Assembly (NCBI GenBank): GCA_002269645.1
Contig: NIVC01000832.1
Span: 1 to 64,000, forward strand
Source: Macrostomum lignano
Lineage: Eukaryota
Direction of reading: 5' to 3'
Length of the DNA: 64,000 nucleotides
The position numbers and the translations under genes are program-made. Under the pieces are notes generated by a model. It searched no databases, was not told where the DNA came from, and was given only the letters and a program-made list of their open reading frames with translations. Position 1 is the first letter of the stretch; every line of letters starts with the position of its first letter. Below, piece by piece: positions 11,876-62,462 of the stretch.

Positions 11876-12089
11876 AACGGCTACAGCGTCCGTCGAAACT
11901 CCGAGGAATGCATATGTCTATGGCACAACCCTTTTGAAATCTGACGAAATAAAGCTTTCGACGATACTCGGGCTTGTGATTCTATCTTTGGTTTAAGTGT
12001 CTATGGTCTCGTATTACTGGTCTCGGTTTAATTGTCTATGGTCTCGTATTACTCGTGCTACGCGCACTCGTGCTTTTGCCATTGACGCA

Positions 12090-27060: not shown

Positions 27061-27404
27061 TATCTCAGATGATTTATAACAATCTGTCTCAACTGGCTTC
27101 CCTAATTTAAATTTTTTGAATAATTGTTTGAGTGAGAAAATTTAACATAATATTAACATAATATTAGAAGTAGAATATGGGCAAGAGAACATGTTAGGAA
27201 TAAATACGGTGAACAATACAGACATTAAGTGCACGCTAAGTATTTAATGTACATGAGCATGTGGATAAATAGGTAATGAACAGGGGAGCAAAATTATAAA
27301 TAGTGATTATGAACCGGTAAGTAAAAATACATATTAGCATAAGCAATAGAGCAACATACATATGAGCAATGGATATTTAGCGTGAGAAAATGAGTAAATG
27401 TACA

Positions 27405-28727
27405 TATTAATATGATTTAGCATGAGCGAATGAGTAAATGTACATGATTTGGCATGATTAAGCACGAGCGACTGAATAAATGTACATATTAATATAATTT
27501 AGCATGAGCGAATGAGTAAATGTACATGGTTTGGCATGATTAAGCACGAGCGACTGAATAAATGTACATAGTTATATGATTTAGCATGAGCGAATGAGTA
27601 AATGTACGTATTAATATGATTAAGCATGAGCGAATGAATAAATGTACATGGTTTGGCATGATTAAGCACGAGTGAATGAATAAATGTACATATTAATATG
27701 ATTTAGCATGAGCGAATGAGTAAATGTACATGATTTGGCATGATTAAGCACGAGCGACTGAATAAATGTACATAATTATATGATTTAGCATGAGCGAATG
27801 AGTAAATGTACATGGTTTGGCATGATTAAACACGAGCGACTGAATAAATGTACATAGTTATATGATTTAGCATGAGCGAATGAGTAAATGTACGTATTAA
27901 TATGATTAAGCATGAGCGAATGAATAAATGTACATGGTTTGGCATGATTAAGCACGAGTGAATGAATAAATGTACATATTAATATGATTTAGCATGAGCG
28001 AATGAGTAAATGTACATGATTTGGCATGATTAAGCACGAGCGACTGAATAAATGTACATAATTATATGATTTAGCATGAGCGAATGAGTAAATGTACATG
28101 GTTTGGCATGATTAAACACGAGCGACTGAATAAATGTACATAATTATATGATATAGCATGAGCGAATGAGTAAATGTACGTATTAATATGATTAAGCATG
28201 AGCGAATGAATAAATGTACATGGTTTGGCATGATTAAGCACGAGTGAATGAATAAATGTACATATTAATATGATTTAGCATGAGCGAATGAGTAAATGTA
28301 CATGGTTTGGCATGATTAAGCACGAGCGACTGAATAAATGTACATAATTATATGATTTAGCATGAGCGAATGAGTAAATGTACATGGTTTGGCATGATTA
28401 AACACGAGCGACTGAATAAATGTACATAATTATATGATTTAGCATGAGCGAATGAGTAAATGTACGTATTAATATGATTAAGCATGAGCGAATGAATAAA
28501 TGTACATGGTTTGGCATGATTAAGCACGAGTGAATGAATAAATGTACATATTAATATGATTTAGCATGAGCGAATGAGTAAATGTACATGGTTTGGCATG
28601 ATTAAGCACGAGCAACTGAATAAATGTACATATTAATATGATTAAGCATGAGTGAATGAGTAAATGTACATGGTTTGGCATGATTAAGCACGAGCGACTG
28701 AATAAATGTACATATTAATATGATTAA
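27405..28727. repeat. Higher-order satellite: 40/42-bp monomers in a 7-monomer, 286-bp unit
   Basis: Diagnostic TACGTA variant at 27605, 27891, 28177 and 28463 (exact 286-bp spacing = 3x42 + 4x40). Confidence 0.92.
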
Positions 28728-28772: not shown

Positions 28773-29861
28773 TCAATTCATATTAAAATCTAGCGGAAGG
28801 CTGTCCTCAACTGGCCAACCGAGATCGGCGGCCATCCAACACACCTCGAACCTGAGTTGCAGCTGCTGGTAGGCCCAGCCTGCCTGATGGATGGTCTGCA
28901 GCGCATACCAAACTGCTCGGCGCCAAGCGGCAATGCTTTCTTCATAGCTAAATTCTCGGCGTAGAGCTTTGATCGTCTCCTTTGGTTCGCCGGCCTGTGG
29001 CATAAACCCTCGCCCATCCAGGCGGAGCAGGGCTACGCGGCACAAATAATTCTTCAGTTGGCCGATCAGGTACTTGTAATAGTCATGGCGCTGCCTTGGA
29101 ATGGATGACAGTACTGCCGAAAAATTGGCGCCCAATTGCATTTGAGATTGTTGACGGGCTGGTTGCGCCCTACGCCGATATTCCGGCGTGGCGGGCAGTC
29201 CCTGCTGAAGGCTCTCAGTAGATACTTCCGTCTGCTGCCGCGGCATTCCCGCGGCTGTCGACATAGCTGTCTGTGGCATGGAAAGCCTGGTTGCCGTAGA
29301 AATTTGCTGCTGCTGTCGCGGCTCCTGTCTGGGGAGGATTGTTCGCTGTCGTTTGGCGATGATGTGCTGGGTAGCTGTAGCGCCTTCAGGCTGCCGTTTG
29401 ATGAGGGCCTGGCTGACCTCTACAGGCTTTTCTGCCTGCCTTTTGAGTAGAGCGGCCCGAGCCCCTGGCTCATGCGGCACAAGCTGTTTAGCCGGTCTGA
29501 TGACAATTTACTTCAATCTCTGAGTGGGTCTCGATGGCGAGGCCGTTACTTCACTTGCCGCTTCCTGTTTGCTGTCTATATGCTGGGCGTATACCGCCTC
29601 CTGCTGGCTGTTGTGGGCGTACACCGCCTCTGATTTGCTGCTGCTGACTTGGTGGGCGTATACCGCCTCACTCTGACCACTGTTGTGCGCTCCTTGACTA
29701 TCGCTGGCGTATACCGCCTTCTGCTGGTTGCCTAGCTGGCCATTTTCCGCCTTTTTCGGCCTGTCTATATCCTGGGCATCTACTGCCTCCTCTTCCTGAC
29801 ACAAATCTACTGTAAAACTGGCTAATAGCTGATCGAATGCCTCAGCATCAAAGTCTTCCAT
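28773..29861 (-). pseudogene. Gypsy accessory ORF3 (copy 1), ~362 aa, one internal nonsense codon
   Basis: ORFs 29508-29861 and 28773-29480 are in the same frame; TAA in RLK*IVIRP matches Ser in copy 2 (RLKSVVIRP). Confidence 0.8.
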
Positions 29862-29944
29862 TGTAATGCTTTGGTTTTTAAGCTTTGGCTAACTCTGGAT
29901 TCTAGTTCTGGTTTTTATCCTAGTCTCTCTCCTGGCTCTGTGTG

Positions 29945-30082
29945 CCCTTTTATAATTTTTGACTTCCCCCCTGCTGAGTTAATTCAAACAAACTAACTTG
30001 TTTTAATCTGTACAAATTATCTTATTGGCCGTTGCGCAATAAAACACTTGATTTAAACCGCAACTGAATTCCTATTGGCTGA
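29945..30082 (-). promoter_or_regulatory. Internal promoter of ORF3 (TATA, two CCAAT boxes, TTGCGCAA)
   Basis: TATAAAA at 29954-29948, two ATTGG, TTGCGCAA at 30032-30039; the whole non-coding block is conserved at ~58590-58727. Confidence 0.65.
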
Positions 30083-31717
30083 CTAAAAGTTCAGTTTCTC
30101 TAGCAACCTCCAAACAGTAGTAAGCTTTTTTAGATAACACTGGCATCTGACGGGCGGCCTAGTGCGGCTGCGTGTGTTATATGGTTTAGTTTTATTACCC
30201 TCTTTGTCTGGCGTACCCCCATTCTCAGGGTGGCCCGCATGCGCGCCTTCTCCTTCCCCTTGTTCTGTTTCGCGTCTGTTATCGATCGTTACTTCTCCTC
30301 CCTCTCGCTCTGACCTCTCCTTTTCCTCTTCCACTAGGCTCTCATGTTGCATATTATTTTCTATCTCAGCTTCTGACTCCGCTTCCAACTCTGATTCATT
30401 CTCATGTACCGATTGTTCATTTTCACGAATCTTGCAAAACCACTTCGGCTGTTCCTCATCAGAGCTTTCCTCTTCTAATTCGATAACTGGTTCCTCTAGT
30501 TTATTCTTTCTGACGTGGCTTCCCTTGCTTGATTGTCCTACCTCCTGCTGATTTCTTTTATTTAAATGCTTAGTTATCGTCTGGCTTTCCTTATTAGTAA
30601 TTTCTACTGTCTCAGCGCTCTCCTGGCTTCCCTTATCTATTGGCTCTTTCACAGAGTTTGGCACTGGGGCCATGTTATCCCTATGCACTAATAACTTGTT
30701 GCCTACTAACTCGCCTTCTTCTTCCTTCTGAATCTTAAAAACTACTTCTGAGATTTGCTTAAGCACTCGAAAGGCGGCTCGCTTTTTCCTATGAAACTTA
30801 TTAGACTCGTCAATGTTAAGTTGTGGATTATTAATTAGCACTAAGCTTCCTACTTCGATAACCTTTGGCTTTTTCTGATTCTCGGCGTCTGTCTGTCTCT
30901 TATCGTGAACTTTCGCAAACTTTTCTTTAACTATTTTTCTAGCGCTTTCTAATCTTTCGGCATCTTTCGGCATAGCGTATTGATTTGGCTCTCTAAGTTC
31001 GCTGTCTATGGGCAAAACTGCCTCTCTGCCAAACAATAAAAAATGCGGCGAATAGCCTGTAGTTTGATTAACGCTAGTTCTCACTGCAACTAAGGCTGCT
31101 GGAATTAATAAATCCCAATTGCTATGATCTTTCTCAATCAGGCATGTGACTATTGACTTGACCTGCTTGTTAAATCTCTCAACTAAACCATTGCTCTGTG
31201 CGTGATATGGAGTTGTGAAAGTGTGCTTCACATTGTACAGCTCACAGAATGCACTAAATTGTTTGCTAGTGAATGCCTTGCCATTATCTGTGTGGATCCA
31301 TTGGCATTGGCTATATTCACTAAATACTCTTTCTTGCAATAGCTTAAATATTTTGATACACGCTTTTTGATTGCGCATTGGAAATGCAAATGGATAGCGA
31401 GTATTGCTGTCTACTATTGTCAACACATATTGATGGCCTCTTTTGCTAATCTTTGAAATTGGCCCTATCACATCTATGTGTAATCGGTGAAATGGCTCAC
31501 TAATTGGAAATGACTGAATCGGAGCTTGCACTTTATGGCCTCTTTTGCTCTCTAAGCATGGGATGCACTCTGCCAAATGCTTTTCTACTGCGGCTACTAA
31601 GCCTGGTCTACAGAATCTCTCTTTAACTCGCTGAACTGTTTTGTCTCTACCTAAATGTCCTGCTAGCGGGCTATCATGCAGATCGCTAAACACTAGCTTA
31701 TCTAAAGACTTAGGCAA
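30083..31717 (-). pseudogene. pol: Gypsy integrase (HHCC, DDE) with long acidic C-terminal extension
   Basis: LHDSPLAGHLG..CIPC; RLHIDVIGP; IHTDNGKAF; NGLVERFN. Separated from RT-RH by a GGA>TGA stop relative to copy 2. Confidence 0.95.
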
Positions 31718-31732
31718 AACTATTTTCCAGAT

Positions 31733-33553
31733 TCATTCTTCTTCTATAGTCAACAGATTCCTTTCTAGCTTCATTTTCTCATATTTTCGTCTCAACTGCT
31801 TCAGTTCGACTGACTCATTTTTCTGAATTGGCGGGACTGACAGATTTTCTTGCTTCCACTCTATTAGTGTGCAGATTGCTGTGTCTTCCCTCTGAGCTTT
31901 AACAATTTGCTCCTTCTTCAATGGTACTTGCAAGTAGTCGGTTAGTAATTTTGTAACTTTAGGTATCTCACTCTCTCTGTGATCAGGTTCAGTGTCTCTG
32001 TTCTGTTGCGTTAAGCTTGAACTCAGTGCTGACACATCTTTTACCTTCGCACCTTCTACTCCTGAAATGACTAATGGCTTGATCCTAGACTCTGAGTCCT
32101 CGGGATGCGAAGTCTGCATCTCTCTTTCTCCTTCTTCTACTGTCTCGCCTACCGCAGCATTCACGCTGTCTCTCGGATTCACGCCTTTTTCACTTTCATA
32201 GGCTTTCACGCCTTGCTTAATCTCACTTTCATAGGCTTTCACGCCTTGCTTAATCTCACTTTCATAGGCTTTCACGCCTTGCTTAATCTCACTTTCATAG
32301 GCTTTCACGCCTTGCTTAATTTCGGTTGCTTCAGCTACTTCTGCCGGTCTTCTGGACAAACTGTCCACGTTGGAATGTTTGGCACCGCTTCTATGCTCAA
32401 TATCGAATTGAAATTCATTTAAGCGTTCCACCCAACGTCCTAGAATCCCTTGGGCCTCTGTTTGCCTTAACAACCATAAAATCGCCTTATGATCTGTGCG
32501 TGCTAGAAATCGCTTTCCTATTAGATAAAATCTAAAATGCTTCATTGCGTCTACTAGCGCTAATAGTTCTTTCCTAGTTATTGGATATCGCTTTTCTGTC
32601 TCTTTCAAAGCACGACTGAAATATGCTATAGGTCTCTCGATGCCATCTGACTGGATTTGGCCTAGGCAGGCCCCTATGCGTCCATCACTAGCATCAGTAT
32701 CTAAGACCATTCTAACATTCTCATCGTCTACAAACTCTGGATAGGCTAGCACTTCTGTTGACATCATTCTTTTCTTAAGCTCTTCAAATGCTTCATCATA
32801 AGCTCTAGTCCACTTTGCCTGAAAGTTCTGCACTCCTTTCCTAGTTAGTTGAAATAACGGATGTGCAGCCTCAGCATAATTCTTAACAAAGCGACTATAA
32901 TAATTGCATAATCCTAAGAAACTTCTTAGCTCTTTTACATCTTTTGGCTTTGGCCAGCTCCTAATGGCTTCTATCTTAGCTTCATCAGTCCTAATTCCTT
33001 CTCTTCCAATTACATGGCCTAAATATTTTAACTCTCTATGAAATAGGTTGCACTTTTTAGCTCTTAGTTTCAGTCGTGCACTAATTAGTCTTTTAAATAC
33101 CTCTCTAAGGTGTTCTAAATGATCTTCAAACTGCTTAGAATAGGTCACTATATCATCTATGTATGACATGGCATATTTATGCTGAATGCCTGCTAACACT
33201 AGATTCATAAGCCTTTGAAAAGTACCTGGGGCATTAGATAAGCCCTGAGCCATAACTTGATACTCAAACTGACCTCTTGTTAATGTTGAAAATGCAGTCA
33301 TAAACTTGTGTTCCTCTTTTATCGGAACTTGCCAATAACCAGAATTCAGGTCAAGGCTACTAAAATACTGACTGCCTGTTAAGTTTGAAAATGTCTCCTG
33401 AATATTTTGCAGCGGATACGGAAAGTAGTTCACTCGTGAATTCAGCACTCTAAAATCACTGACTATTCGAATAGTACCATCTTTCTTCGGTACAATCACT
33501 AAAGGTTTTGAATAAGTCGAATAGCATGGCCTAATTAAGTTCTTAGCTAACAC
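31733..33553 (-). pseudogene. pol: Gypsy reverse transcriptase + RNase H
   Basis: FSSLDLNSGYWQVP, QGLSNAPGTFQRLM, SYIDDIV, LDTDASD, YPITRKELLAL, RTDHKA. Confidence 0.97.
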
Positions 33554-33562
33554 GTCATCTAG

Positions 33563-34987
33563 CTAAGCATCTACCTGTTTCTGCAGATGAGGGGGAATCC
33601 TTCTAGTCGGAATCCTAACAGGTGTCTCATCCCTTAGTGAGATTTCATGCGTGACTAATAATGTTAAGCCCATATCTAGATAATGTTGAGAAAAGGCCTC
33701 TCTATGCTCTTTTACGAGCTGAATCACCCTATCTCTCTGTTCTGCTGTCAAATCTTCACTAATATCTATTTCGCTAATCCAAGTTTCACTTGTAGATTGC
33801 GTTTGATTGACACGTCCGGTGATTGGCTGATCTGGCGGCACGGTTTGATCTACTTCATTATTCATATAAGTGAGCTCTCTAGCCCTGATTGGCTTAGCTA
33901 AACCTACTAAGGTTGATTTCGGCAATTTCACTTCTACCGTGCTTTGATTCACTACTTCTACTATGGCTACGCCATCGCGCATAGTAACTAAGGTCGGATT
34001 CATTTCTAGTGTCTCTGTCTTAGTCCTAATACTACTTCCAATGGTCTCAATAGTCATTGGCGTGACATAATTGGCTTCTGAATTTTTGGCTAATCTAACT
34101 GGGACTCGCAGTGCGCTATTAGGCGGAACTACTGCTCTCTCCTGAGTGTATACCCGGCAAACTTTTACTGGTAAATGAGTATACTGCATGGGAATACAAG
34201 TCCCCTCTTTTAAAATTAACATGCGTTTTGCTAATTGAATGCTTTCACAGCGATTTTTAAATAATTCCATGCCTAGTATGTTGTCACAATCGTGGCTGCA
34301 AAGTAGGAATTCTATTTCTAATTCTAAATCTCCGAACTGCACTAAAGTACTTGCTTCTGCTTCTAATTTCACTGTAGTTCCATCAAATGTGGAAACTCTC
34401 CTACTTGTTTCTGTAATCTGACTCGGCTCGAATACTTTTGACCAAACTGATCTACTTAGAAAATTATTTTGAGCGCCTGTGTCTATTAGAAAGTCTACTT
34501 CTTGATTATCGATATTGCCTACTACTATTGCTTCATAGCCTGTCTGATTTACTAATTCAACTTTCGGTTTCGGAAAAATCTTTTGCTTAACTTTTTTCTT
34601 AGACTTTGGCTGGCGAAAATCGGGTTCGGACTCTTCTTCTACTACTGGTGCTAAGTTTCCAGTAGCATAAGCAGGATTGACACATGGTGATGCGGCTGGT
34701 GCATACGCATGAGGTGCTGACGCAGAACAAGTGGAAATTGGTGCTGGTGCAAACGCATTATTTACATGCACACCACCTATGTGTCCTTTTCGCATTGGGA
34801 CAGTTCGCCAACCTTCACTATCTACACTATATTTACAATTAGAGGCCTTCATTTTGTACTCATTTCTCCTAGAGGGTCGTGGCCTCTCATGCCACCCTCT
34901 GTACTCTAGTTTCCCTGTTTGCGATTCACGCGGCACTGGTGACCTATACCAGGCCTTATTGAACCGGGTTGCTGGCAAATTGCACAC
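33563..34987 (-). pseudogene. pol: Gypsy aspartic protease region
   Basis: VDFLIDTGAQNNFLS, ILGMELF; followed in frame, across one TAG, by RT. Confidence 0.92.
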
Positions 34988-35844
34988 CTTCCTGGCTGCG
35001 GCGAATAAGAGCGAATCGGAAACTCTCTCCTAGGTCTAGGCTGATAATATGCCGGAACTCTCGGCTGAAATGCCGGTTGCTGCTGATAATTCTGTCGCGG
35101 CATCTGAGCTGGGCATGGCTGCGGTCTGCGGCATGGCTTGTGCGCCATCAGCTCCTGAATCAGCTTTTTCTGTTGCTCTAACTCATTCTTCTGCTGCTGA
35201 ACTAAGTCTTGGAGCTTCTTCTCTTGCTCTCCTTCTCCTTCTTTCATCATCCTAACACCTCCTTTGTGCGATAGTTGCCATGCGGCCTCAATTCGCCTTA
35301 GCATTCGCCTAGCTTCTTGCAGATTCGCAGGTTGGGCGAAGATTAACTTCTGCCTAGTGTCTGGCGGAATCCTAACTCCTTTGATAAACTGCTCAACTAT
35401 CTCCTCCTCTCGCTGTTCTGCATTCATGTTTGGGAAGGCCCTATCTGATAGCTCAATCAGCGCATCAGCATAAGCGTCCTTTGACTCATTCCTTCCTTGC
35501 ATTCTGCCTCTAAACTCTTCCCTAAATTCTGACGCATTTCCTATTCTACCAAATCTCTCGATCAAGTGCTCCTTGAATTCTTCATATCCTAGATCTTCTG
35601 GCAGATTAAGTCGCTGTACAGCGGCGAACGCTGTTGCTAAGTCTAGATTAGCTAATAGCTCAGTTTTCCTATGATTCTCCTCGATTCCTTCTGATTCACA
35701 CCTCTGATCAAAAGCTGTCAACCAGATCCTAATGTCTTGGCTTGGCGTGTACTTTTGAATTCTCACATGCCTCGCTGGTCCTATTTCTAAACGATTCCTA
35801 AGCTCTTCAGCTAGTAGCGCTAATGCGTCATTAATTCCTGCCAT
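34906..35844 (-). CDS. gag: Gypsy Gag (capsid-like, degenerate zinc knuckle)
   Basis: First ORF after the PBS; FRGRMQGRNES..YADAL..L...AF; EQFIKGV; CAICQQPG remnant. Confidence 0.85.
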   Translation of the reverse strand: MAGINDALALLAEELRNRLEIGPARHVRIQKYTPSQDIRIWLTAFDQRCESEGIEENHRKTELLANLDLATAFAAVQRLNLPEDLGYEEFKEHLIERFGRIGNASEFREEFRGRMQGRNESKDAYADALIELSDRAFPNMNAEQREEEIVEQFIKGVRIPPDTRQKLIFAQPANLQEARRMLRRIEAAWQLSHKGGVRMMKEGEGEQEKKLQDLVQQQKNELEQQKKLIQELMAHKPCRRPQPCPAQMPRQNYQQQPAFQPRVPAYYQPRPRREFPIRSYSPQPGRCAICQQPGSIRPGIGHQCRVNRKQGN

Positions 35845-35890: not shown

Positions 35891-35901
35891 CGCTGCCACC
35901 A
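35891..35901 (-). promoter_or_regulatory. PBS (tRNA-Leu type) of Gypsy copy 1
   Basis: TGGTGGCAGCG, 3 nt from the LTR end ...TGTGACA. Confidence 0.8.
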
Positions 35902-37002
35902 AGTTGTCACAGACGTGTTTCCTCCTTCTTCTAGATCCCACTAGATGTCACCAAGTTGTCGCAGACGTACTCGTTTCTAACTGCAATTTCACCTTAAAGC
36001 CACTGAGCCTTTTACAGACTTTCTGGTTCTTATCACTAAGCTGTCTATTTCTAGTAGTATTGGCTGCCCTAAACTATGACCTTTCTCTAATTTCACACGA
36101 TTTCTTGGAAACCTTGTGATAGCGTGTAGTCCCCGCGCGCAGTGGCGTACTCAGGATTTAGTTTTGGGGGGGGGGCCGCAATCCTTAGGGGCGCCAATGT
36201 TGGGTGTCTTGTGGGGGCGCCATTTGCCAATGTTGCGTGCTTAAAATTTAAATCATGAATATTGAACAATTTGAGCACTTTTGTATTTCGACTTGTACTT
36301 ATTTATTAGAAAATAACTATTATGCTTAATTTGTTTATTGGACTTTATGTATGATCACGTAGGAACAACCGCGAAATTGGCATTCAAGGCATCAATCAGA
36401 ATCGATTCAAATGCGCGCAAAAGTTAAGTACAATAACTAAACTCACATGCAAATATAGACAATATTTTGTACTGACAGATTAAAAAAACTCATAGCATGG
36501 GAAAGTCGTTTTACGATGTGAGAAATTTTCATTAAATTTGAGCATGAAAAGTTTCAGAGTAATGAGAAAGGTATGAAACATTCGTCGAATTTTGCACAGA
36601 CACTTCTATAGAAACTTTTCAAAGAAACATAAATAAATGTCCAAATATAATAGGCAACTCCTGAAAACACTGCACATATACTTTTATCGTCCATGCTTGC
36701 AGATTTTTTAAAGCAGTTTTCATTGAATAGAATGATCTAGAAGCCTCGCAAAATGACAAAGAACTTGTTTTACTACACCCAGTCACCCATTATTTCTTGG
36801 AAATCAACTAAGTATATAACAAGTATCTGTGAAAGTAATAAATAAGCCTATTTGAACAGCTTGCTAAAATGTCAATACACAGAATACGCAAAGCAGGAAA
36901 ATGTCAATACATAAGATCCGGTAAATGGCACCTACTACAATAGTATATGACGGCTCGTACTCGTACGAGCTAGGATCGCAAATTAAAACAATAGCTAACA
37001 CT

Positions 37003-49802: not shown

Positions 49803-51679
49803 CAGCCAAACTCTAATAAAGACCAGTAAATAATTTCAACAATTGTACTTTTTAGAGTAAAGCCTAGTAGCATTCAAAATAGTAAAAAACAAAGAGCATT
49901 AAAAAATATATTTTAACCCTAAGTTTAACAGAAAGTTCAAACAATTGTCTTAAAATGTGTAAAATAGATTCTGTCACAAAATGGGATCAAAAACTTTTTC
50001 TAGGCATTTTAAGTCACTAAGTTGTGATACTAAGCTTACATCTAAGGAATTCCCAGAATCTCAAGAAAATATTCAGTCCAAAGATATAAAAAACACTGTA
50101 GACAATAAAGCATTTTCAGTATCATAGATGGTGTTTTAAAAAATTAATAGCATAAGAGAAATTGATAGTTATTACCAAATACCTAATTAACCCTTAAGGG
50201 TAACAATTAACAAAACTTAAGGGTACAAATTGTCTCTTTATCTAGGCACTAGACATTTTGCAACAAAAATATTTAATTCTCACACATTAATATAATTTAT
50301 ATATTGACAATAGCTTTACAAAAACAGCTACTTACACATTCGTAGTGCATATACTCAGAAACGAAAAATTTAATAGTTTGTCTATTTAGAAAATATAAAA
50401 TTTAAAAAATACAAATATTTTTTAAATATTTAAACTTCAAATAGGTTGACATTTCCTATCAATTCTAATTTAAAGCAAAGCATACTATTTGATATTTTTG
50501 ACAATAATCAATTATCAAGTGGCAATAGCCTACAGCAGAAAATTCATGATGCATAATAATGGTATTGTCACAGACGTGTTTCCTCCTTCTATATCCCACT
50601 AGATGTCACCAAGTTGTCGCAGACGTAATCGTTCCTAACTGCGATTTCACCGTAAAGCCACCGAGTCTTTACAGACTTTCTGGCTCTTATCACTAAGCTG
50701 CCTATTTCTAGTAGTATTGGCTGCCCTAAACTATGACCTTTCTCTAATTTCACACGATTTCTCGGAAACCTTGTGATAGCGTGTAGTGCCCGAGCGGTTA
50801 GACATTGTCTAATTTCCTAATTTAGTCCGAAAGTCTAGCGTTTTCCGAGGATCAAGGGTGTCCAGCAGTAGCTACAGCTCTAATGCCTAATCTCCTAGCG
50901 CCTAATACCTATTATTAGCCAGTACGGCTTTCTTAGAGTCTGTACGACCTTAAATTTCTCCTTATTTTTAGACCTCTATCTTGGATCTCCACGACCTCTA
51001 ATTTCTCCCTATTCAGATCCCTAGTTCTGGGTCTCCACGACCTCTGGTTTCTCCCTATTCTGATCCCTAGTTCTGGGTCTCCACGACCTCTGGTTTCTCC
51101 CTATTCTGATCCCTAGTTCTGGGTCTCCACGACCTCTGGTTTCTCCCTATTTAGATCCCTAGTCCTGTATTCGTTCAAAGAACTAAGACTCGCAGGTTTC
51201 AACTTACGTTTTGGTTTGAATGTCAAACGCTGCTTCTCCGATTGAGAGCGAGCTCGCGAAGATTCGCGGAAGAGCAGTTACTTTTATTTTTGGTAAATTG
51301 TTTCGTTTATATAGTGGATAAAACTCAATTTGATTGGTTGAAATTAATTATAACAAAAATAGTTTACGAAATTTTAACAAAGTATTAAACTCCATTGGCT
51401 AAGATTATTTAAAACAAAGCAATTTAGGGATTTGAACAAGGAAATTCACTGATTGGCTGAGTAAAAATAGCTCATTGAACCCGCTTAAAACTACTATTAG
51501 TAAGAATAAAAGATCGACCCTATTACAGCTGGCTTCCCTTAATTGGATTTTTGAATTAATTATATGTGAAAAAATACAAATTACATGAATAATACTATAA
51601 GTAGCATACGAGAACAATACAGATACTCAGCACCATAACGCAAATGAATAGCATGAGTGAGCTAAATATTAAAGGAAAA

Positions 51680-51945: not shown

Positions 51946-54208
51946 TCATGAGTGTCAGCAAAAAATGTTAATTACGCCTATTACCTATATTCATACCGAA
52001 TTCTGTTGGCCAGCTGTTCTTGACTTGCCATCCCAACTTGTCGGCCATCCAGCAGACCTCGAACCGCAGCTGTGCCTGCTGGTAAAACCAAGCCGACTGG
52101 GTGAGATCGTGCAGAGCATACGTAACAGCCCTTCGCCAGGCCGCTATACACTGCTCATGCGTACAGTTGGCCTGGAGATCCTCGATTGCCGTTTCTGGCT
52201 CTTTGGTTTGGGGCAAGAAGCCTCTCCCATCTATTCTAAGCAAAGCCACGCTGAGCAGGTAAGACTTGATCTTCATGATGGCCTGCTTGTATGGTTCTTG
52301 AAGATGAGTCGGGACTTCCTGCAGCACAGCCGTGAAATTAGCCCTTAAGGCCATTGGGTTCTGCGACCGGTGGCTTCTTGGTGTCACTGCCGAGGCTGCC
52401 TGCATTCCAACGGCCGGAGCCTGAGGCTGCGCCGATGACGTACTTTGCGATGACATGACTGTTGGCTGCGGCCGTGACTGCTGTCGCGGCAGAATGGATC
52501 TAGGCTGTTTGATGGGGTCTACGACAATTGACTGCCACAATTTGACTGCCACAATTTGACTGCGGTCAATTTGACTGCGGACAATTTGACTGCCGAGCAA
52601 TTTGACTGCCGACAAAATGACTGCGGACAAATGACTGCCAACAATTTGACTGCCGACAATTTGACTGCCAACAAAATGACTGCCGACAAAATGACTGCCA
52701 ACAACTTGACTGTCGACAATATGACTGCGGCAATTTGACTGCCGACAATATGACTGCGGCAATTTGACTGCCAGCAAAAAGACTGCGGCAATTTGACTGC
52801 CAAGCAATTTGACTGCCGATAAAATGACTGCGGCAATTTGACTGCGGACAAAATGACTGCCGACAAAATGACTGCCAACAATTTGACTGCCGACAAAATG
52901 ACTGCCGAGCAATTTGACTGCCTCAAATACTACACGTACATCCTCTTATAAATGTATTGATCATATTTATGCAGGACTAAAAATTCGTTCTTTACGAGTA
53001 ACGATGCAAGCTACATTTGCCTTTCAGCATTAAATGCATGTGTTATGACGAATGTTTAAACGGATCATCTATACATAGCTGTGGTTAGTTGAGCGGAGTG
53101 CTCTTTATAGAGCTAGCTTACCATTAACTTTAGCTTTTGACTGATTAATCCAAATATACTAAATATTAGTCTATTAGGCTATTAATAGTTTTATAGTACG
53201 AGTCTATGGTATTGCTTTTAAATCTGGAAGATTCCATCCAATATATGAGATTAATATGACATAGGAGAAAGAAAGAACCTTTAAATGTGGAAACCTTGTG
53301 CATGTCGATTTAAAAAGTCAGCAAACAATTTTTTTATAGCAGAGTAACAAAACATGCTAAAATAACAGAAATAAGCGTTTATTATTAAGAATACATAACT
53401 ATAGGAAGATACATGGATGTTATATAGAACTTTAAAACTGCCTCAGGAAAAATACACCACCGAATTGGCAGGTTAGAAGTCTATAAAAACGCCATGTCTA
53501 TAAAAAATTAATGTCTAACAAAAGATTCATTAGTTGCCACAGCGTTTATTATTAAGAATACATAACTTTGAGAAGATACATGGATGCTATATAGAACTTT
53601 AAAAATGCATCAGGAAAAATACACCACCGAATTGGCAGGTTAGATGTCTATAAAAACGCCATGTCTATAAAAATTCATGTCTATAAGATTCATTAGCGAA
53701 GTGCTGAGATGTTAAGGCTTGTGGGGGGATTGTAGAGATGCGAAGGCTGAGAGGTCAGAAGCTAAATGTAGTGGTTTATTCAAGTTTTTATTATTTTTGT
53801 TGGCTCCACAATGGGGAGACGCTGACTGCCAGTTATTAATTTAATCGTAATAGTTATTTGAATTCAACCCAAACTGTGAAGCTAAGTGGAGGTCTAGAGT
53901 CTGGACTTAAAAGCGGTGAGGCAAAGAATTGAATGTGACGTAACGTAACAACTTTAATTAGGGGTAATAAGAAATATGACTATAGAGGATCCGTAATAAT
54001 AATTTGATCTTTTACAGGGCTACCGGCTAAGGCTGTGCGACGAATGTCGTTTTTAGCTCGTAGGTAGGGTGGTAAGGGCAAAGGGCTTGATAAAAATGAC
54101 GAATAGAAAACTGTTGCTGCCAGAAATTCTACAGCGACGATTGTCAAACGAGTTGAATATAAAACATTGTAGCATAGCTTAGGTCAATAAAAAACTAAAT
54201 TATTACGA

Positions 54209-55750
54209 TCATACTTTCAGATTGTGGGCGATGCCTCGCAGGAAGTCGCAGGTTGGGTAATCTGCTGTTTCATAGCTCTCAGTGACCGCCTTAATTCGGG
54301 CATCAGTCTCTTTGTAGCGACGCTTCCGATCAGGCCGCGCACCCGCGATAGCTTGCTCGATCTTCACTGCCTGAGCTTCTTGCTCAGCTTTCAGCTGATT
54401 GAGCAATTTGAAGAAATTTGGGCTATGACACTCAAGAAGAGCCGAAAAACGACGGTGCCATGCTTCAGCGCTGTTATTGGAACGCATTTGACCTTCAAAT
54501 GTCCGCCGACGTACATTCCATGTTTCGATTGGAAATCTTGGCTGCTTTCGCTGGCCACCAGCACGTGGGCGACCGATCCAAGTGTCCTCGAAATAGTCGG
54601 AAATCGGCAATGCATCCTCCGGGAAAGCTGCAGCGGTAGTTAGCTGAACGAAACAGTCTGGGACGTCCGTTGGAGGTACAAATGCCAAGGCTGGCAGACA
54701 ACGGACCCATAAGGCAAATCCACCATCCACTTCATCATACCTTCTCTTCAATCCAGAACTAATGACTCTTTTGTACACACACTGGCAGAGATGAAAGAGG
54801 CAACCGGTTGACACTACACCAAAAACGCTGCTAATAGCATTTTGCGCTGCCTTCTCAAAATCTTTCATCCATTCCTGTGGACTCAGGCGTGGACACAGGC
54901 GGCGGATCTCCTGAAACAGACAGATATACGATGCTTCCATCTTGTTCGAAAGCAATGCATACACAAGCGGGCGAACATGGCCATGCACAAGCGCGTGCAC
55001 TGTATACAGCTGCTGAAAAAGCGCAGGAGCCGCGTCAAACGTGCCATCACTGAAAAAGCTTGTTGCAACATTCATTAGCTCAAGAGAGCGGTCGGTTGCA
55101 AAAATTAAAATTCGATGCTGGCCTGGACCACTGTCAAATTGAAGAAATTTCTCTCCATTGATGGAAGAAAATGCTGGTGGGATAACTAGTGCTTCGAGGC
55201 TTGCAGGCTGAACTGGAAATCCCTGTTCAGTGTTTCTAACTAGTTGCACCATTCGCTTCAGATTTTTCTCTGGCCCAAGGCCTACAGCGATCGATGCAGA
55301 AGCACCTTGCGTGCAGTAGTTCAAGATAGTAGCAGTTGAATTGGCTGTTGATGCTGATAAACTGCGAACTTCATGCCTAATGTGCCGCACTACTCCTTCG
55401 GTGCCATCAGAGCCATGATTATGGCTATGGATAAGTCGTACCAAATTAGTGCCTTCATCATGAGCACGACAAGGACAGCCATATATCCTTTTCTTAGTGC
55501 AGCTATAAAATGCAATATTACCAGTAGCACTCATTTTCTCAAAATGGTAACAGTAGCCATCATGAGAGATAGCAGTCTTTCTTTTCTGAGTGGGCACTTC
55601 AGTTACATGAGCAAATTCATCATCTTCTTCCTCATGTTGATTACCTTGCTGTTGATTGTTTCTATTATTTTCATTCATATTAAATTCATTTGAACTAGGT
55701 AGTTTAACTGCAATGGCAAATAATGGAGAGTAAAAGTTGTTTAAAAGCAT
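54209..55750 (-). CDS. MULE transposase with FLYWCH-like domain, apparently intact (~490-510 aa)
   Basis: HDGYCY..FYSC..GCPCRAH..HSHNH; FFSDGTFDAAP..QLYTVH; DFEKAAQNA; GCLFHLCQ; YFEDTWIG; RSNNSAEAWHRRF; no stops. Confidence 0.95.
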   Translation of the reverse strand: MLLNNFYSPLFAIAVKLPSSNEFNMNENNRNNQQQGNQHEEEDDEFAHVTEVPTQKRKTAISHDGYCYHFEKMSATGNIAFYSCTKKRIYGCPCRAHDEGTNLVRLIHSHNHGSDGTEGVVRHIRHEVRSLSASTANSTATILNYCTQGASASIAVGLGPEKNLKRMVQLVRNTEQGFPVQPASLEALVIPPAFSSINGEKFLQFDSGPGQHRILIFATDRSLELMNVATSFFSDGTFDAAPALFQQLYTVHALVHGHVRPLVYALLSNKMEASYICLFQEIRRLCPRLSPQEWMKDFEKAAQNAISSVFGVVSTGCLFHLCQCVYKRVISSGLKRRYDEVDGGFALWVRCLPALAFVPPTDVPDCFVQLTTAAAFPEDALPISDYFEDTWIGRPRAGGQRKQPRFPIETWNVRRRTFEGQMRSNNSAEAWHRRFSALLECHSPNFFKLLNQLKAEQEAQAVKIEQAIAGARPDRKRRYKETDARIKAVTESYETADYPTCDFLRGIAHNLKV

Positions 55751-56829
55751 TATGTTATAAAATATATGAATAGAAAAAGTATTTATATATAATTAATACA
55801 CTGCATTAAGAGCAACATATTTTTTAGGTTAGACCTACTTCTAGCTTTTTATGACTTAATGCAATCATATAAAGTATGTTTAAATAAAATATGGAATTTA
55901 AATAGGCCTAAGACTTAAACAATCCATGATAATAATTTATGTAGTTTTCGAGTTTTTTAACATTGTATAAACTATTGATGCCTGTAATTTTAGCATAAAT
56001 ATTAAGCATCAAAATAATTGGTACAATAAATTTAAATGGTAGATATACATTAAGACTATAGACAATTACAAAAAAGGACGATCAATGCAGGATCAATTTT
56101 TTATAAAATAACTACTATATACAATGTTGTCCTATTTTAGGCAATAAAGCAAGCTTGGCAAAAAGTAAATAAATAAAAGAAAATAATCAATCTAAACTAT
56201 ATTAGGTTTTCTATATCAACAAATTTTGTCAGGGCTCAGTAAATATGTTAAATGAAGCAAGAAATTGTTCTTAACTTCTTATAGCCATAAGGCCTATATT
56301 GTTTGATAAATTATAACATTTGAAAGGAGTAAAAATACAAAACTAGGTATTTAAAAGCTTAAATATGTAGAAAAGTATGAAAAACAAATGATGGAAAGGC
56401 ATGGTAAAATATTAAGTTAGTAAGTTAGCAGAATGTTTGCTAAAATTCAGACAGAAGATAGAATATTTTCCTAAAATGTGGGAATGGATATGGATATTAA
56501 TTTAAATTCTGGACATAACTGTCAGAGAAGCTTATAAGCAATGATTTATGACTGCAAAAAATAGCATAAACCATATATGCCTACAGCCTATGTTATAATT
56601 ACAAATATAGCAAAATTATATATAGCTATGAAAATCCTACTAGTATGAATTCTAGGAAAATTGCATAAAATAGAGAAAAATGCAGTTCAGAATCAATATT
56701 AGAGATGGACGGAAATTTCGGGCATTTTCATTGCAAATTTTCGGGTAGCTACAGTTTCGATTTCGGGTATTACAATTTCGGGTACATTGATACCCGAAAT
56801 TTCAAGCTCATTGTCTTCTTAAATCTAAA

Positions 56830-57180
56830 GCTGAGTGGATCGATCGAGAGTAGAAATGAGAGAGAGAGATGAAAGGAGAGATGAGAGATGAGAGATGAGA
56901 GAAGACAAGAGAGGGAGAGAGTATAGAAGAGAAGAAAAGAAAAGGGAAGAAAGGAGAAAGGAAAGAAAGGAGAAAGGAAAGAGAGGAGTCAAAAGAGGGG
57001 AAGAGAAGAGTACAGAGGAGAGAGGTGAGAGAACATACGAGTATAAGAGTAAGATGAGTCGATGACAGATAAGAGAGGGGAGATGAGAGAGCAGAGACGA
57101 GAGAGAAGTGAGAAAACAGAAGAGAAGATAGAAGGTTCAAAGGATGCAAGGGACATAGGGATCGAGAGGCAGAGGTAGAG
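56830..57180. repeat. GA-rich low-complexity tract inside the MULE
   Basis: Purine-only runs (GAGAGAT, AGAAAGG). Confidence 0.85.
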
Positions 57181-58714
57181 GCCAGAGTTTTTCTGACATT
57201 CTGCGCCGCACCCCAGCCAACAATATCAATAGTTTGGCTCCAATCCTAATTTTCCACGAATGTAATCTACGTTATGTTTAACTCTATCCTAATTCCTAAC
57301 TAATAATAAAAGTTTTTGCTTGAGTTTAAACTCAGATTTTAGAATATATGCAAAATAGTTCCTAAGATTAGAATTCCCATTTCCCACGGTTCAAAATCCG
57401 AGGGTTTCAACAGCCGTTACAGCTTGTATAAAGGTTATGTGTCCTGTTCTGCATCATTCTAGCTCGTAAATACAATATTTCACTACATGCATAGACTTAA
57501 AAGGGTTGACAGAGTGCTAAACTTTAGGAGCATCATTTTTCCGGCAGTCATTTCGCTGGCAGTCAAACTCCTCGGCAGTCATTTTGTCCGCAGTCATTTT
57601 GTCGGCAGTCAAATTGTTGGCAGTCAAATTGTCCGCAGTCAAATTGCCGCAGTCATTTTATCGGCAGTCAAATTGCTCGGCAGTCAAATTGCCGCAGTCT
57701 TTTTGCTGGCAGTCAAATTGCCGCAGTCATATTGTCGGCAGTCAAATTGCCGCAGTCATATTGTCGGCAGTCAAATTGTTGGCAGTCATTTTGTCGGCAG
57801 TCATTTTGTTGGCAGTCAAATTGTCGGCAGTCAAATTGTTGGCAGTCATTTTGTCCGCAGTCATTTTGTCGGCAGTCATATTGCTCGGCAGTCAAATTGT
57901 CCGCAGTCAAATTGACCGCAGTCAAATTGTGGCAGTCAATTGTCGTGCACCCTTTGATGGTAATACCCTGAGTCGCGTTCGCTCCTGGCGGCTGTCGCTT
58001 GCGAATGCTGTTGCTTATTTCGACTGGTCTGTTGGCTTGATCACGTAGCAATGACGCTCGAGCCTGCGGATTATGCGGTACAGGCACCTTCTGTGCTGCC
58101 GGCCGTATTACCACAGACTTTAGTCGGGTGCTTCTTCCTTGGCCGATGGCTGCCTCTGCTTCTTGATTTTCAATAACTATCGTTTCTGACGCTTCCTGTT
58201 TGTTCTTAGCTATTGTTTCTGACTGGTGGGCGACTACTGCCTGCTGCTGCTGCTGGGCGACTACCGCCTCTTGCTGCTGCTGCTGGGCGACTACCGCCTC
58301 TTGCTGCTGCTGCTGAGCGACTACCGCCTCTTGCTGCTGCTGGTGGGCGACTACCGCCTCTTGCTGCTGCTGGTGGGCGACTACCGCCTCTTGCTGCTGC
58401 TGGTGGGCGACTACCGCCTCTTGCTGCTGCTGGGCGAATACCGCCTCTTGTCCACCTACTAGGATAGTAAAATCTCCTAATAAATCTTCAAAGTCTGCGA
58501 AAAGATCTATTTCATCCATAGTTAACTAGTTTAATTTTTTTTGACTGTTAGATTTAAATTCTATCCTGACTCCTTCCTGACTAAATGTCCCCTTTTATAT
58601 AAATTGACTTCCCCCCGCTGATTTAATTTAAACAAACTAACTTGTTTTAATCTTTGTAAATTATCTTATTGGCTCTTGCGCAAAAAACACTTGATTTAAA
58701 CCCCAGCTGAGTTC

Positions 58715-61700
58715 TTATTGGCTGACTAAAAGTCTAGTTTTTCTAACAACCTCCATAACGGTAGCCAGCTTTTTTAGATAACACTGGCATCTGACGGGCG
58801 GCCTAGTGCGGCTGCGTGTGTTATATGGTTTAGTTTTATTACCCTCTTTGTCTGGCGTACCCCCATTCTCAGGGTGGCCCGCATGCGCGCCTTCTCCTTC
58901 CCCTTGTTCTGTTTCGCGTCTGTTATCGATCGTTACTTCTCCTCCCTCTCGCTCTGACCTCTCCGTTTCCTCTTCCACTAGGCTCTCATGTTGCATATTA
59001 TTTTCTATCTCAGCTTCTGACTCTGATTCATTCTTATGTACCAATTGTTCATTTTCACGAATCTTGCAAAACCATTTCGGCTGTTCCTCATCAGAGCTTT
59101 CTTCTCCTAATTCGATAGCTGATTCTTCTAGTTTATTCTTTCTGACGTGGCTTCCCTTGCTTGATTGTCCTAACTCCTGCTGATTTCTTCCATTTAAATG
59201 CTTAGTTTTCGTCTGGCTTTTCTTATTAATAATTTCTACTGTCTCAGCGCTCTCCTGGCTTCCCTTATCTATTGGCTCTCTCACAGAATTTGGCACTGGG
59301 GCCATGTTATCCCTATGTACTAATAACTTGTTGCCTACTAACTTGCCTTCTTGTTCTTTCTGAATCTTAAAAACTACTTCTGAGATTTGCTTAAGCACTC
59401 TAAAAGCGGCCCTTCTTTTCCTATGAAACTTATTAGACTCGTCAATGTTAAGTTGTGGATTATTAATTAACACTAAGCTTCCTACTTCAATAACCTTTGG
59501 CTTTCTCTGATTTTTGGCGTCTGTCTGCCTTTTGTCATGCACTTTCGCAAACTTTTCCTTAACTATTTTTCTGGCACTCTCTAATCTTTCGGCATGCTCA
59601 GCTACATAGGTCGGATAACTAGCATATTGGTTTGGCTCTCTAAGTTCGCTGTCTATGGGCAAAACTGCCTCCCTGCCAAACAATAAGAAATGCGGCGAAT
59701 AGCCTGTAGTCTGATTAACGCTAGTTCGAACTGCAACTAAGGCGGCTGGAATTAATAAATCCCAATTGCTATGATCTTTCTCAATCAGGCATGTGACTAT
59801 TGATTTGACCTGCTTGTTAAATCTCTCAACTAAACCATTGCTTTGTGCGTGATATGGAGTTGTGAAAGTATGCTTCACACTGTACAACTCACAGAATGCA
59901 CTAAATTGTTTGCTAGTGAATGCCTTGCCATTATCTGTGTGAATCCATTGACATTGGCCATATTCACTAAATACTCTTTCTTGCAACAGCTTAATAATTG
60001 TATCAGCTTTTTGATTGCGCATTGGAAATGCAAATGGATAGCGAGTATTGCTGTCTACTATTGTCAACACATATTGATGGCCTCTTTTGCTAATCTTTGA
60101 AATTGGCCCTATCACATCTATGTGTAATCGGTGAAATGGCTCACTAATTGGAAATGACTGAATCGGAGCTTGTACTTTATGGCCTCTTTTGCTTTCTAAG
60201 CATGGGATGCACTCTGCCACATGCTTTTCTACTGCGGCTACTAAGCCTGGTCTACAGAATCTCTCTCTAACTCGCTGAACTGTTTTGTCTCTACCTAAAT
60301 GTCCTGCTAGCGGGCTATCATGCAGATCGCTAAACACTAGCTTATCTAAAGACTTAGGCAAAACTATTTTCCAGATTCCTTCTTCTTCTATAGTCAACAG
60401 ATTCCTCTCTAACTTCATTTTCTCATATTTTCGTCTCAACTGCTTCAGTTCGACTGACTCATTTTTCTGAATTGGCGGGACTGACAGGTTTTCTTGCTTC
60501 CACTCTATTAGTGTGCAGATTGCTGTGTCTTCCCTCTGAGCTTTAACAATTTGCTCCTTCTTCAATGGTACTTGCAAGTAGTCAGTTAGTAATTTTGTAA
60601 CTTTAGGTATCTCACTCTCTCTGTGATCAGGTTCAGTGTCTCTGTTCTGTTGCGTTAAGCTTGAACTCAGTGCTGACACATCTTTTACCTTCGCACCTTC
60701 TACTCCTGAAATGACTAATGGCTTGATCCTAGACTCTGAGTCCTCGGGATGCGAAGTCTGCATCTCTCTTTCTCCTTCTTCTACTGTCTCGCCTACCGCA
60801 GCATTCACGCTGTCTCTCGGATTCACGCCTTTTTCACTTTCATAGGCTTTCACGCCTTGCTTAATCTCACTTTCATAGGCTTTCACGCCTTGCTTAATCT
60901 CACTTTCATAGGCTTTCACGCCTTGCTCAATTTCGGTTGCCTCAGCTACTTCTGCCGGTCTTCTGGACAAACTGTCCGCGTTGGAATGTTTGGCACCGCT
61001 TCTATGCTCAATATCGAATTGAAATTCATTTAAGCGTTCCACCCAACGTCCTAGAATCCCTTGGGCCTCTGTTTGCCTCAACAACCATAAAATCGCCTTA
61101 TGATCTGTTCGCGCTAAAAATCGCTTTCCTATCAGATAAAATCTAAAATGCTTCATTGCATCTACTAACGCTAATAATTCTTTCCTAGTTATTGGATATC
61201 GCTTTTCTGTCTCTTTCATAGCACGACTGAAATATGCTATAGGTCTCTCGATGCCATCTAACTGGATTTGGCCTAGGCAGGCCCCTATGCGTCCATCACT
61301 AGCATCAGTATCTAAGACCATTCTAACATTCTCATCGTCTACAAACTCTGGATAAGCTAATACTTCTGTTGACATCATTCTTCTCTTAAGCTCCTCAAAT
61401 GCTTCATCATGAGCCCTAGTCCACTTTGCCTGAAAGTTCTGCACTCCTTTCCTAGTTAATTGAAATAACGGATGTGCAGCCTCAGCATAGTTCCTAACAA
61501 AGCGACTATAATAATTGCATAATCCTAGGAAACTTCTTAGCTCTTTTACATCTTTTGGCTTTGGCCAGCTCCTAATGGCTTCTATCTTAGCTTCATCAGT
61601 TCTAATTGCTTCTCTTCCAATTACATGGCCTAAATATTTTAACTCGCTATGGAATAGATTGCACTTCTTAGCTCTTAGCTTCAGTCCTGCACTAATTGAG

Positions 61701-62174
61701 CTTCAGTCCTGCACTAATTAATCTTTTAAATACTTCTCTGAGGTGTTCTAAATGATCTTCAAACTGCTTAGAATAGGTCACTATATCATCTATGTATGAC
61801 ATGGCATATTTATGCTGAATGCCTGCTAATACTAGATTCATAAGCCTCTGAAAAGTACCTGGGGCATTAGATAAGCCCTGAGCCATAACTTAGTGCTCAA
61901 ACTGACCTCTTGTTAATGTTGAAAATGCAGTCATAAACTTGTGTTCCTCTTTTATCGGAACTTGCCAATAACCAGAATTTAGGTCAAGGCTGCTAAAGTA
62001 TTGACTGCCTGTTAAGTTTGAAAATGTCTCTTGAATATTTTGCAGCGGATACGGAAAATAATTCACTCGTGAGTTCAGCACTCTAAAGTCACTAACTATT
62101 CGAATAGTACCATCTTTCTTAGGTGTTGAATAAGTCGAATAGCATGGCCTAATTAGGTTCTTAGCTAACATGTC
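58715..62174 (-). pseudogene. pol: Gypsy copy 2 pol: open 909-aa RH-IN frame plus damaged RT fragments
   Basis: 58715-61444 is open (RH + IN); RT pieces 61445-62174 are disrupted by a short duplication near 61679-61714 and other indels. Confidence 0.95.
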
Positions 62175-62462
62175 AGTAGTATATAAAAAGTACGCTTCTA
62201 GACCCAGAGGCACCTATCAAACAGGTGATTTGAGGGGGTAGAGGGGGGGCACGAGGGGGAAACCAAAAAACACATTTCAACACTAAACAGCACAATTAAA
62301 CACAATTAAACACCCCCAACACCCCCAACACAACCAACACTCTCTAATACTACTAACACTTCCAACACTTCCAATAATTTTCCTCGTGTCGCCCCTTTTA
62401 TTACCCCCTCAAATCATCTGTTTGATAGGTACCGGATCTATAAGCGTACTTTATATACTACT
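62175..62462. other. 288-bp fold-back with AGTAGT...ACTACT ends (probable terminus of a Maverick-like element)
   Basis: Arms ~62175-62240 and 62402-62462 are inverted copies (~85%); CA-rich loop; starts exactly where Gypsy-2 RT stops. Confidence 0.85.

Follow-up and report, generated by a model that had tools for sequence, protein, structure and literature searches.

ORF3, a conserved non-env accessory gene of a Gypsy clade in Macrostomum lignano, and its possible role as a family-specific LTR activator

Results

Two Gypsy copies carry a third gene behind pol

The window was the whole stretch of DNA analysed, 64,000 nucleotides of the Macrostomum lignano contig NIVC01000832.1 (positions 1 to 64,000; assembly GCA_002269645.1). 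Two Gypsy copies were found in it, both on the minus strand (Table 1). Their Pfam domains followed gag in the order PR, RT, RH and IN, and the TG...CA LTRs, primer-binding site (PBS) and polypurine tract of Ty3/Gypsy elements were present. As an earlier note on this DNA had described, each copy carried a sense open reading frame, ORF3, between pol and the 3' LTR. It comprised 362 codons in copy 1 and, by arithmetic on the coordinates of its two pieces, 368 codons in copy 2. The C-terminal 118 amino acids of the two copies aligned without gaps and shared 65 of 118 identities, as had been reported. ORF3 lay outside the LTR, with the AT-rich repeat region and then the polypurine tract and the TG start beyond it. 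The basic KRQ..KRQR segment that had been described for both copies was found in copy 1, which has KRQR, but copy 2 reads KQPR.

A single knock-out event per copy had been proposed. The TAA in copy 1 and the MULE in copy 2 were both found, but the damage to copy 1 went further, because its pol was spread over three frames and its LTRs were broken. Only ~20 nt of its 3' LTR were left, and its 5' LTR was interrupted. The MULE gave Pfam matches to MULE and FLYWCH, its long inverted ends consisted of 15-bp repeats, and its direct repeat was located at 52508 and 57953.

Several further features were observed in the window. After the usual RxR tail, pol continued in the window (30083-30150) and in relatives into an extension, CxCxLxxLxxxxxLLxxLxF, that was conserved in three sub-lineages. 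The window gag had a variant zinc knuckle (34906-35000); the gags of the L040, L042, L043 and L046 families ended without a knuckle. The insertion that interrupts the 5' LTR of copy 1 (36140-41275) contained a 48-bp repeat, and its frames at 37003-38187 and 38651-40123 are, from their motifs, presumably hAT-like. On the same basis, we take the frames at 24989-26910, 42253-43146 and 45821-46681 to be Polinton primase-helicase, polymerase and integrase pieces, and those at 5829-6452, 11390-11917 and 22958-23443 to be pieces like an IS1595/Merlin transposase, a Crypton-like recombinase and a PIF1 helicase.

Table 1. Features of the two Gypsy copies in the window, and sets of relatives mentioned in the text
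Feature	Position or loci	Strand	Remarks
ORF3, copy 1	28773..29861	-	ATG 29861, stop 28773-28775, 362 codons, TAA at codon 118 (29508-29510)
Conserved 118-aa C-terminal domain, copy 1	28776..29129	-	predicted five-helix bundle, pLDDT 86.5, without known match
Conserved middle motif KSVVIRP..RAxLL..QA..PV..RQP, copy 1	29382..29519	-	modelled as two short helices in L035, an intact relative
Acidic hydrophobic N-terminal helix, copy 1	29808..29861	-	activation-domain-like; export-signal spacing fits too
Non-coding block, copy 1; likely internal promoter and 5' UTR	29862..30082	-	no upstream ATG
Promoter-block motifs, copy 1	TATAAAA 29948-29954; CCAAT 30024-30028, 30074-30078; TTGCGCAA 30032-30039	-	
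pol (PR-RT-RH-IN), copy 1	30083..35029	-	stops split it into three frames
gag, copy 1	34906..35844	-	C-terminal C-x2-C-x11-H-x-C knuckle variant
Primer-binding site, copy 1	35891..35901	-	TGGTGGCAGCG
5' LTR of copy 1, 3' end	35905..36139	-	more LTR-like sequence at ~41276-41918, past an insertion
82-bp tandem array, AT-rich, 3' UTR of copy 1	27389..28727	-	repeat units differ in other families
Polypurine tract (27092-27104) and 3' LTR stub, copy 1	27073..27104	-	
ORF3, copy 2, N-terminal piece	57961..58519	-	ATG 58519
MULE insertion in ORF3, copy 2	52516..57952	-	inverted ends (~400 bp) consisting of 15-bp repeats; flanked by an 8-bp direct repeat
ORF3, copy 2, C-terminal piece with conserved domain	51968..52515	-	
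Promoter block, copy 2	58520..58740	-	TATAAAA 58593-58599; CCAAT 58668, 58717; TTGCGCAA 58676
pol, copy 2	58715..62175	-	DNA identity to copy 1 92.9% over 58559 to 62175
3' LTR, copy 2	50566..51527	-	TG...CA, 962 bp; polypurine tract 51528-51539
Pol-less loci	L048, L049, L051, L052, L054-L057, L059, L061, L062, L084, L088		intact ORF3
Loci with GATGCGGTCCAGTTTTTC-like motif	L048, L050, L052-L055, L057, L058, L060-L065		

ORF3 is conserved in its Gypsy clade

The 118-aa domain gave at least 150 matches in genome G000, where 150 of the 261 candidates had been scored; other seeds reached further families. Among 100 related integrases with at least 67% identity, 92 had an ORF3 domain downstream, 87 of them at 1.5-4 kb and 5 at 5.5-10.5 kb. 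For the remaining 8, no downstream domain was among the matches listed. The set of relatives consisted of 60 loci of 10 kb, which were picked for long frames and diversity; in this set, so chosen, 39 loci had a full-length ORF3 (279-535 aa). ORF3 was in sense orientation in every locus with gag or pol and lay directly 3' of pol, and env was absent. Where both LTRs of an element were covered, they were in most cases 98-100% identical, and many intact copies were at 99-100%. In one place (L031 and L032, G000:C1098), a tandem array of the copy-1 family had three LTRs and open gag and pol, and its ORF3 was cut inside the domain by a stop different from that of copy 1. Another ORF3 copy (L109, 5700-6700 in element orientation) is interrupted by what we take, from its motifs, to be a mariner-like transposase.

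Close domain pairs gave dN/dS of 0.18 (14 pairs) and 0.21 (10 pairs), the pairs not being independent, and RT gave 0.08-0.09. The window copies differed from each other with dN 0.38 and near-saturated dS. The N-terminal and middle parts of ORF3 were constrained as well (pN/pS 0.22-0.54 in 9 of 9 pairs). No positive selection on ORF3 was seen, the close pairs being purifying. The earlier note had named a dN/dS of ~1 across copies as evidence against a functional gene, and the value found was ~0.2. ORF3 is under purifying selection. This selection and the matches in the genome indicated that ORF3 is more than a chance frame, and the observation of a conserved, non-env accessory gene was confirmed. 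A non-functional repeat by-product or a decayed env might have been expected from the broken state of both window copies and from the low complexity of the middle part. However, this reading was largely refuted by dN/dS, and the full-length frames in the 39 loci, the confident fold and the lack of a hydrophobic segment also opposed it, leaving it extremely improbable.

To look beyond this genome, a profile was compared with 1.84 billion representatives. Of the 7 matches, five were Macrostomum lignano proteins with names and one was a Logan protein; the last, a weak match to a repeat, was not counted. The gene ids of the named homologues were not found in the main texts searched or in the supplements of PMC12801592. 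A term search of the accessible main text of that paper, which deals with M. lignano LTR elements, did not find 'ORF', and its supplements were searched too. No mention of the protein family was found in the open literature, with subscription papers and Repbase outside reach. Within a single Gypsy clade, ORF3 is conserved as an accessory gene, and its product represents a protein family undescribed in the sources searched.

The ORF3 protein has an acidic N-terminus and a basic helical domain

The protein was analysed using 27 non-redundant relatives. The first 35 residues had a net charge of -6 to -12 in all 27, and the middle was basic and of low complexity. The domain had a pI of at least 8.6 in 26 of the 27, the exception being L035 with a pI of 6.3, which was not basic. 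A membrane segment was found in none of these intact proteins (maximum 19-residue hydropathy at most 1.11). Together with the acidic N-terminus, this upheld the claim that ORF3 is not env.

The 118-aa domain was modelled with AlphaFold as a five-helix bundle (Table 1). The model of a full-length intact relative had three ordered parts, namely a helix at the N-terminus, a pair of confident helices in the middle and the bundle, and the rest of the chain was disordered. Word-indexed protein searches with ORF3 gave no matches, and Pfam gave no match at its cut-off. PDB sequence searches gave best E values of 0.28 and 0.021, and Foldseek gave 0.89 (PDB), 1.0 (viral) and 0.77 (full-length model). 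The best Z scores of VIA-align, 8.1 and 7.7, fell on unrelated helical bundles, which is the background for such folds. No match of the predicted bundle to a DNA-binding domain was found in the fold searches. A protein atlas gave bacterial clusters at 0.90-0.92, with low recognition, and no usable match for the sister domain. The fold comparisons, made on predicted models, do not establish the fold as either new or different. The profile and structure search that had been proposed as a check on the domain matched no known env or catalogued protein in Pfam, PDB or fold comparisons.

We take the N-terminal helix to resemble an acidic activation motif. In the first 35 residues, the spacing of an export signal was present in 16 of the 27 proteins compared to 2.5 in shuffles (maximum 8), and in the middle it was found in 0 of 128 windows. 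By analogy with CERV of Cer1, ORF3 could be a Rev-like shuttling factor that binds the genomic RNA of its own family, for example at U-rich repeats of the 3' UTR, and is exported through CRM1 with the N-terminal helix as the signal. Besides the spacing, the Arg/Ser/Pro-rich middles of one sub-lineage would agree with such a factor, and CERV provides a precedent in the available part of its description (PMC10309623). However, 11 of the 27 proteins had the acidic helix without the export pattern, and amphipathic activation helices show the same spacing. We consider a Rev-like role fairly unlikely.

An internal promoter probably precedes ORF3

The TATAAAA, the two CCAAT boxes and TTGCGCAA that had been reported upstream of both ORFs were recovered, with the first T of TATA 93 and 80 nt before the ATG. 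A set of 18 non-redundant upstream regions was analysed with shuffled and antisense controls. Sense TATA was present in 12 of 18 regions (shuffles 3.0, maximum 9; antisense 6), and in 9 of 18 it was located at -72 to -106. Full CCAAT of the NF-Y type was counted 12 times against 1.6 in shuffles, and pairs of CCAAT and TATA 6 times against 0.7. TTGCGCA was found upstream of ORF3 in 10 of 27. Of 27 families, 14 had a conserved non-coding motif like GATGCGGTCCAGTTTTTC. It lay immediately upstream of the TATA position, ~110-125 nt from the ORF3 ATG, and persisted where TATA has decayed. A coding reading of this motif was dropped, most changes, as read by eye, being non-synonymous.

Upstream ATGs were counted in 30 elements. 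They were common from the pol stop to about -90, with 86 between -300 and -110, and the last 60 nt contained 1 compared to ~27 expected (~18 without in-frame ones). In the promoter, identity-breakpoint and upstream-ATG analyses, the ATG of copy 2 was entered as 58521 (really 58519), and its offsets are therefore 2 nt short. The depletion in the last 60 nt suggested that an RNA end lies close to the ORF3 ATG, and argued against re-initiation or splicing from the pol end. The many ATGs between the pol stop and the promoter in the window clade, which make such splicing unlikely, also weighed against the Rev-like factor. A trans-splice site within the last 60 nt may be an alternative source of the RNA end; trans-splicing is common in M. 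lignano according to the accessible part of PMC5730564.

In L048, L057 and L062-L064 the TATA was degenerate, and the L044-L087 group had none. P0001, a gene model derived from RNA, started at an in-frame Met ~165 nt further upstream, which meant that this transcript begins before the proposed start. An RNA start was not seen, the short contigs from 4 RNA runs on L035 containing neither a start nor an informative joint. The sequence features suggested that ORF3 is likely read from its own internal promoter behind pol. The proposal of an internal promoter was supported indirectly, by the enrichment of TATA and CCAAT, by the loss of upstream ATGs and by the drop in identity between relatives within or just behind the block, but about half of the non-redundant relatives lacked a TATA or had a degenerate one. 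A motif shared by the internal promoter and U3 was tried as a candidate and rejected. Its self score of 21.2 exceeded the cross score of 19.4 (permutation p 0.0005), yet the reverse-strand self score was also 21.2. Shuffled U3 gave similar scores, indicating a composition effect.

Sister lineages carry an ORF in the same slot

Twenty further loci were taken as a sister set, 19 of them with an integrase at 54-61% identity. In group B, the domain of the ORF in the ORF3 slot aligned with the window-clade domain over 89 columns in a profile comparison (E 4e-4, probability 35%), and judged from this alignment it is likely a distant homologue. The group B ATG was located 2-4 nt after the pol stop, TATA was absent, and a pyrimidine tract and CAG, similar to a splice acceptor, stood in front, with TTTAAC...pyrimidines...CAG inside the last pol codons. 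This tract would imply spliced and unspliced RNAs, as expected for a Rev-like factor. The group B ORF3 (L094-L101, L106, L108 and L110; ~4700-5700 in element orientation) had a basic GKRRR-type segment first and the acidic helix in mid position.

In several copies of group C (L093, L102, L104, L105 and L171), the slot ORF was fused in frame to pol/integrase. A splice-acceptor-like site preceded an internal Met, and the ORF began with a similar EQQLSLS motif. The group C domain was unsupported as a homologue, with a profile probability of 0.3%. Since group B has an ORF of its own in the slot without TATA and group C has a fusion, the promoter block looks like a derived way to express an older gene.

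ORF3, possibly together with U3, is exchanged between elements

Pairs with RT dS of 0.02-0.06 had domain pS of 0.62-0.78. This meant that recombination was needed, not faster protein change. The RT and domain trees largely agreed on the major sub-lineages, which indicated that ORF3 was ancestral to the clade. Within sub-lineages, RT was nearly uniform, and domain branches were 0.2-0.7. Tree tests were performed on groups that were named after the pairwise data had been seen. On the RT tree, L043+L085 was not rejected (p 0.116), L046+L086 was already grouped, and L046+L086+L047+L087 was rejected (p 0.0135). The domain tree rejected L067+L085 and L047+L087+L068+L069 (p < 0.001).

The identity breakpoints were located within or just after the promoter block, mostly at -110 to -45 from the ATG in lineages with TATA. 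In two groups identity dropped 26 nt after TATA, and in several pairs of the TATA-less group at about -250. Among the pairs listed, domain identities of at least 0.79 went with U3 identities of at least 0.68, and domain identities of at most 0.6 with U3 identities of at most 0.60. In these U3/domain and breakpoint values, the L032 domain was replaced by the domain of window copy 1. By these identities, U3 seems loosely to track ORF3 rather than RT. ORF3 and U3 adjoin, so linkage alone could give their co-segregation. U3 also drifted under a nearly identical ORF3, as in L048/L049 (domain 0.97, U3 0.70).

ORF3 was also retained without pol. Pol-less elements were found at 13 of the 60 loci (Table 1). 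They were ~5 kb in size and consisted of LTR, a mini-gag of 150-205 aa, a pol tail, the promoter block and ORF3, and their LTRs were 98.6-100% identical in 12 of 13. The mini-gag was 34-49% like the full gag but shorter, with a C-x2-C-x11-H-x-C knuckle, and its pN/pS was 0.14-0.29 in 6 pairs. The domains of L058 and L084 were identical, indicating that pol-less elements can gain a fresh ORF3 by recombination. These elements resemble plant TR-GAG elements as far as the latter are described in the sources consulted.

These exchanges bear on three other readings. A replication cofactor split off from pol, acting in integrase tethering, nuclear import or particle assembly, would be consistent with the group C fusion and its EQQLSLS start. 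However, the group C domain lacked profile similarity, and ORF3 alleles only 42-58% identical were found on RT of 94-99% DNA identity. ORF3 was also combined with the diverged mini-gag, so it did not appear to co-evolve with gag or pol, and a cofactor seems quite unlikely. A host-directed effector, acting on the cell cycle or on stem-cell or germline state without element specificity, would fit the short conserved motifs in the disordered ORF3 chain. Short motifs within disordered chains are typical of host-binding viral proteins. However, such an effector would leave the stable coexistence of deep alleles and their pairing with U3 unexplained, and we regard it as very unlikely.

The third reading is a sequence-specific anti-silencer that would bind family-specific tandem repeats and remove or block host silencing, by analogy with VANC of VANDAL transposons. 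Family-specific tandem arrays were present in the 3' UTR and LTR (82-bp in copy 1; 23-bp and 46-bp in L035), and ORF3 was deeply diversified on a constant gag-pol. The targets of VANC are likewise tandem repeats that vary between related elements, according to the part of PMC5735166 consulted. However, no sequence link to VANC was found by Pfam, the inspected portion of the L063 3' UTR had no obvious array, and positive selection was not seen, the close pairs being under purifying selection. An anti-silencer seems unlikely.

Discussion

We tentatively favour the reading that the ORF3 product is a nuclear, family-specific activator of the LTR of its own element, probably expressed from its own promoter behind pol. 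This is quite possible, judged from sequence and predicted structure. It was favoured because of the acidic helix, the basic segments and domain, the co-inheritance with U3 and the retention in pol-less elements. In such a mechanism, a short RNA would start ~45-110 nt before the ORF3 ATG and end in the 3' LTR. The basic five-helix domain would recognise U3 or repeat DNA of its own family, or a factor bound there, and the acidic N-terminal helix would recruit co-activators. Since the ORF3 RNA would be independent of the LTR, it could set a positive loop in motion, comparable to that of Tas in foamy viruses. Family specificity would account for the coexistence of many deep ORF3-U3 cassettes on exchangeable gag-pol, and for the retention of ORF3 in pol-less elements. 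Several results weigh against this reading: the patchy TATA, the upstream start of P0001, the fold searches without a match to a DNA-binding domain, the non-basic domain of L035, the rejected promoter/U3 motif, the linkage and drift of U3, the supply of ORF3 to pol-less elements by recombination, and the export-signal spacing in 16 of 27 N-terminal helices.

The known systems were compared as they are described in the accessible parts of the cited papers. The earlier note had likened ORF3 to a foamy-virus module. In foamy viruses, the regulatory gene Tas/Bet lies before the 3' LTR and has an internal promoter, and Tas activates the LTR and the internal promoter (PMC8003144). ORF3 likewise lies before the 3' LTR, and its internal promoter is predicted from sequence. 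However, Tas follows env, whereas the ORF3 element is env-less. The earlier reading was supported in part, for a conserved non-env accessory gene. A sequence or fold link to Tas was not given by the Pfam, PDB and viral fold searches, and a promoter/LTR element in common was not found. Tas is an analogy and not a case of membership.

In Tor3b and Tor4b of Oikopleura, env is under an internal promoter whose start was mapped by 5' RACE (PMC4402516). Like the ORF3 elements, they are Gypsy-type elements of animals, and their third gene is transcribed from within pol or from the gap behind it, as is predicted for ORF3. In contrast to the Tor gene, which encodes a membrane glycoprotein, ORF3 has no membrane segment, and its start was placed from sequence. 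The gene23 of maize Grande, an accessory gene between pol and the 3' LTR like ORF3, has its own promoter and a nuclear product proposed as a regulator (review PMC7264820); for ORF3, the promoter and the nuclear role are predicted. Unlike ORF3, which is sense, animal and exchanged as a cassette, gene23 is a plant gene in antisense, and no sequence link was seen.

CERV of C. elegans Cer1 is a nuclear accessory protein with H, M and G domains, made from a spliced RNA that shares gag exons (PMC10309623). ORF3 likewise encodes a novel accessory protein in an LTR element of an invertebrate; it has candidate signals for import and export, and its nuclear role is predicted. It differs in being a gene of its own behind pol and in its small predicted helical bundle. 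VANC belongs to a plant DNA transposon and has proven demethylation activity (PMC5735166). Like VANC, ORF3 diversifies by family, with family-specific tandem repeats nearby in copy 1 and L035, and no homology was seen. The non-env ORF3s of bdelloid LTR elements are a GDSL esterase and a DEDDy exonuclease (PMC5408684). They are likewise non-env cargo in the env slot; in contrast, the ORF3 domain matched no recognisable enzyme. Internal promoters of third genes, nuclear accessory genes with their own promoter, non-env ORF3s and an export factor are thus already known, and the new part, compared with the sources searched, is this protein family.

A wider view is rather doubtful at present. In this view the env-less elements would be complex ones, every family producing, from an internal promoter, an activator specific to its LTR and equipped with a novel helical domain for nucleic-acid binding. 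The activator and U3 would form a lock-and-key cassette. Two chassis, a shared gag-pol and an old, parasitic mini-gag, would exchange this cassette, in part through template switching where the short RNA has its 5' end.

Complex retroviruses are characterised by regulatory accessory genes, and hardly any such genes are known from env-less animal retrotransposons, CERV being one case. More than 25 diverged ORF3 alleles, each with its own LTR, make family-specific self-activation directly testable, and LTR reporters already work in M. lignano according to the accessible part of PMC12801592. If this reading is true, ORF3 would represent a new small domain in a gene that moves between splice-driven, fused and own-promoter expression. 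It would also make orthogonal activator/promoter pairs possible for flatworm transgenesis.
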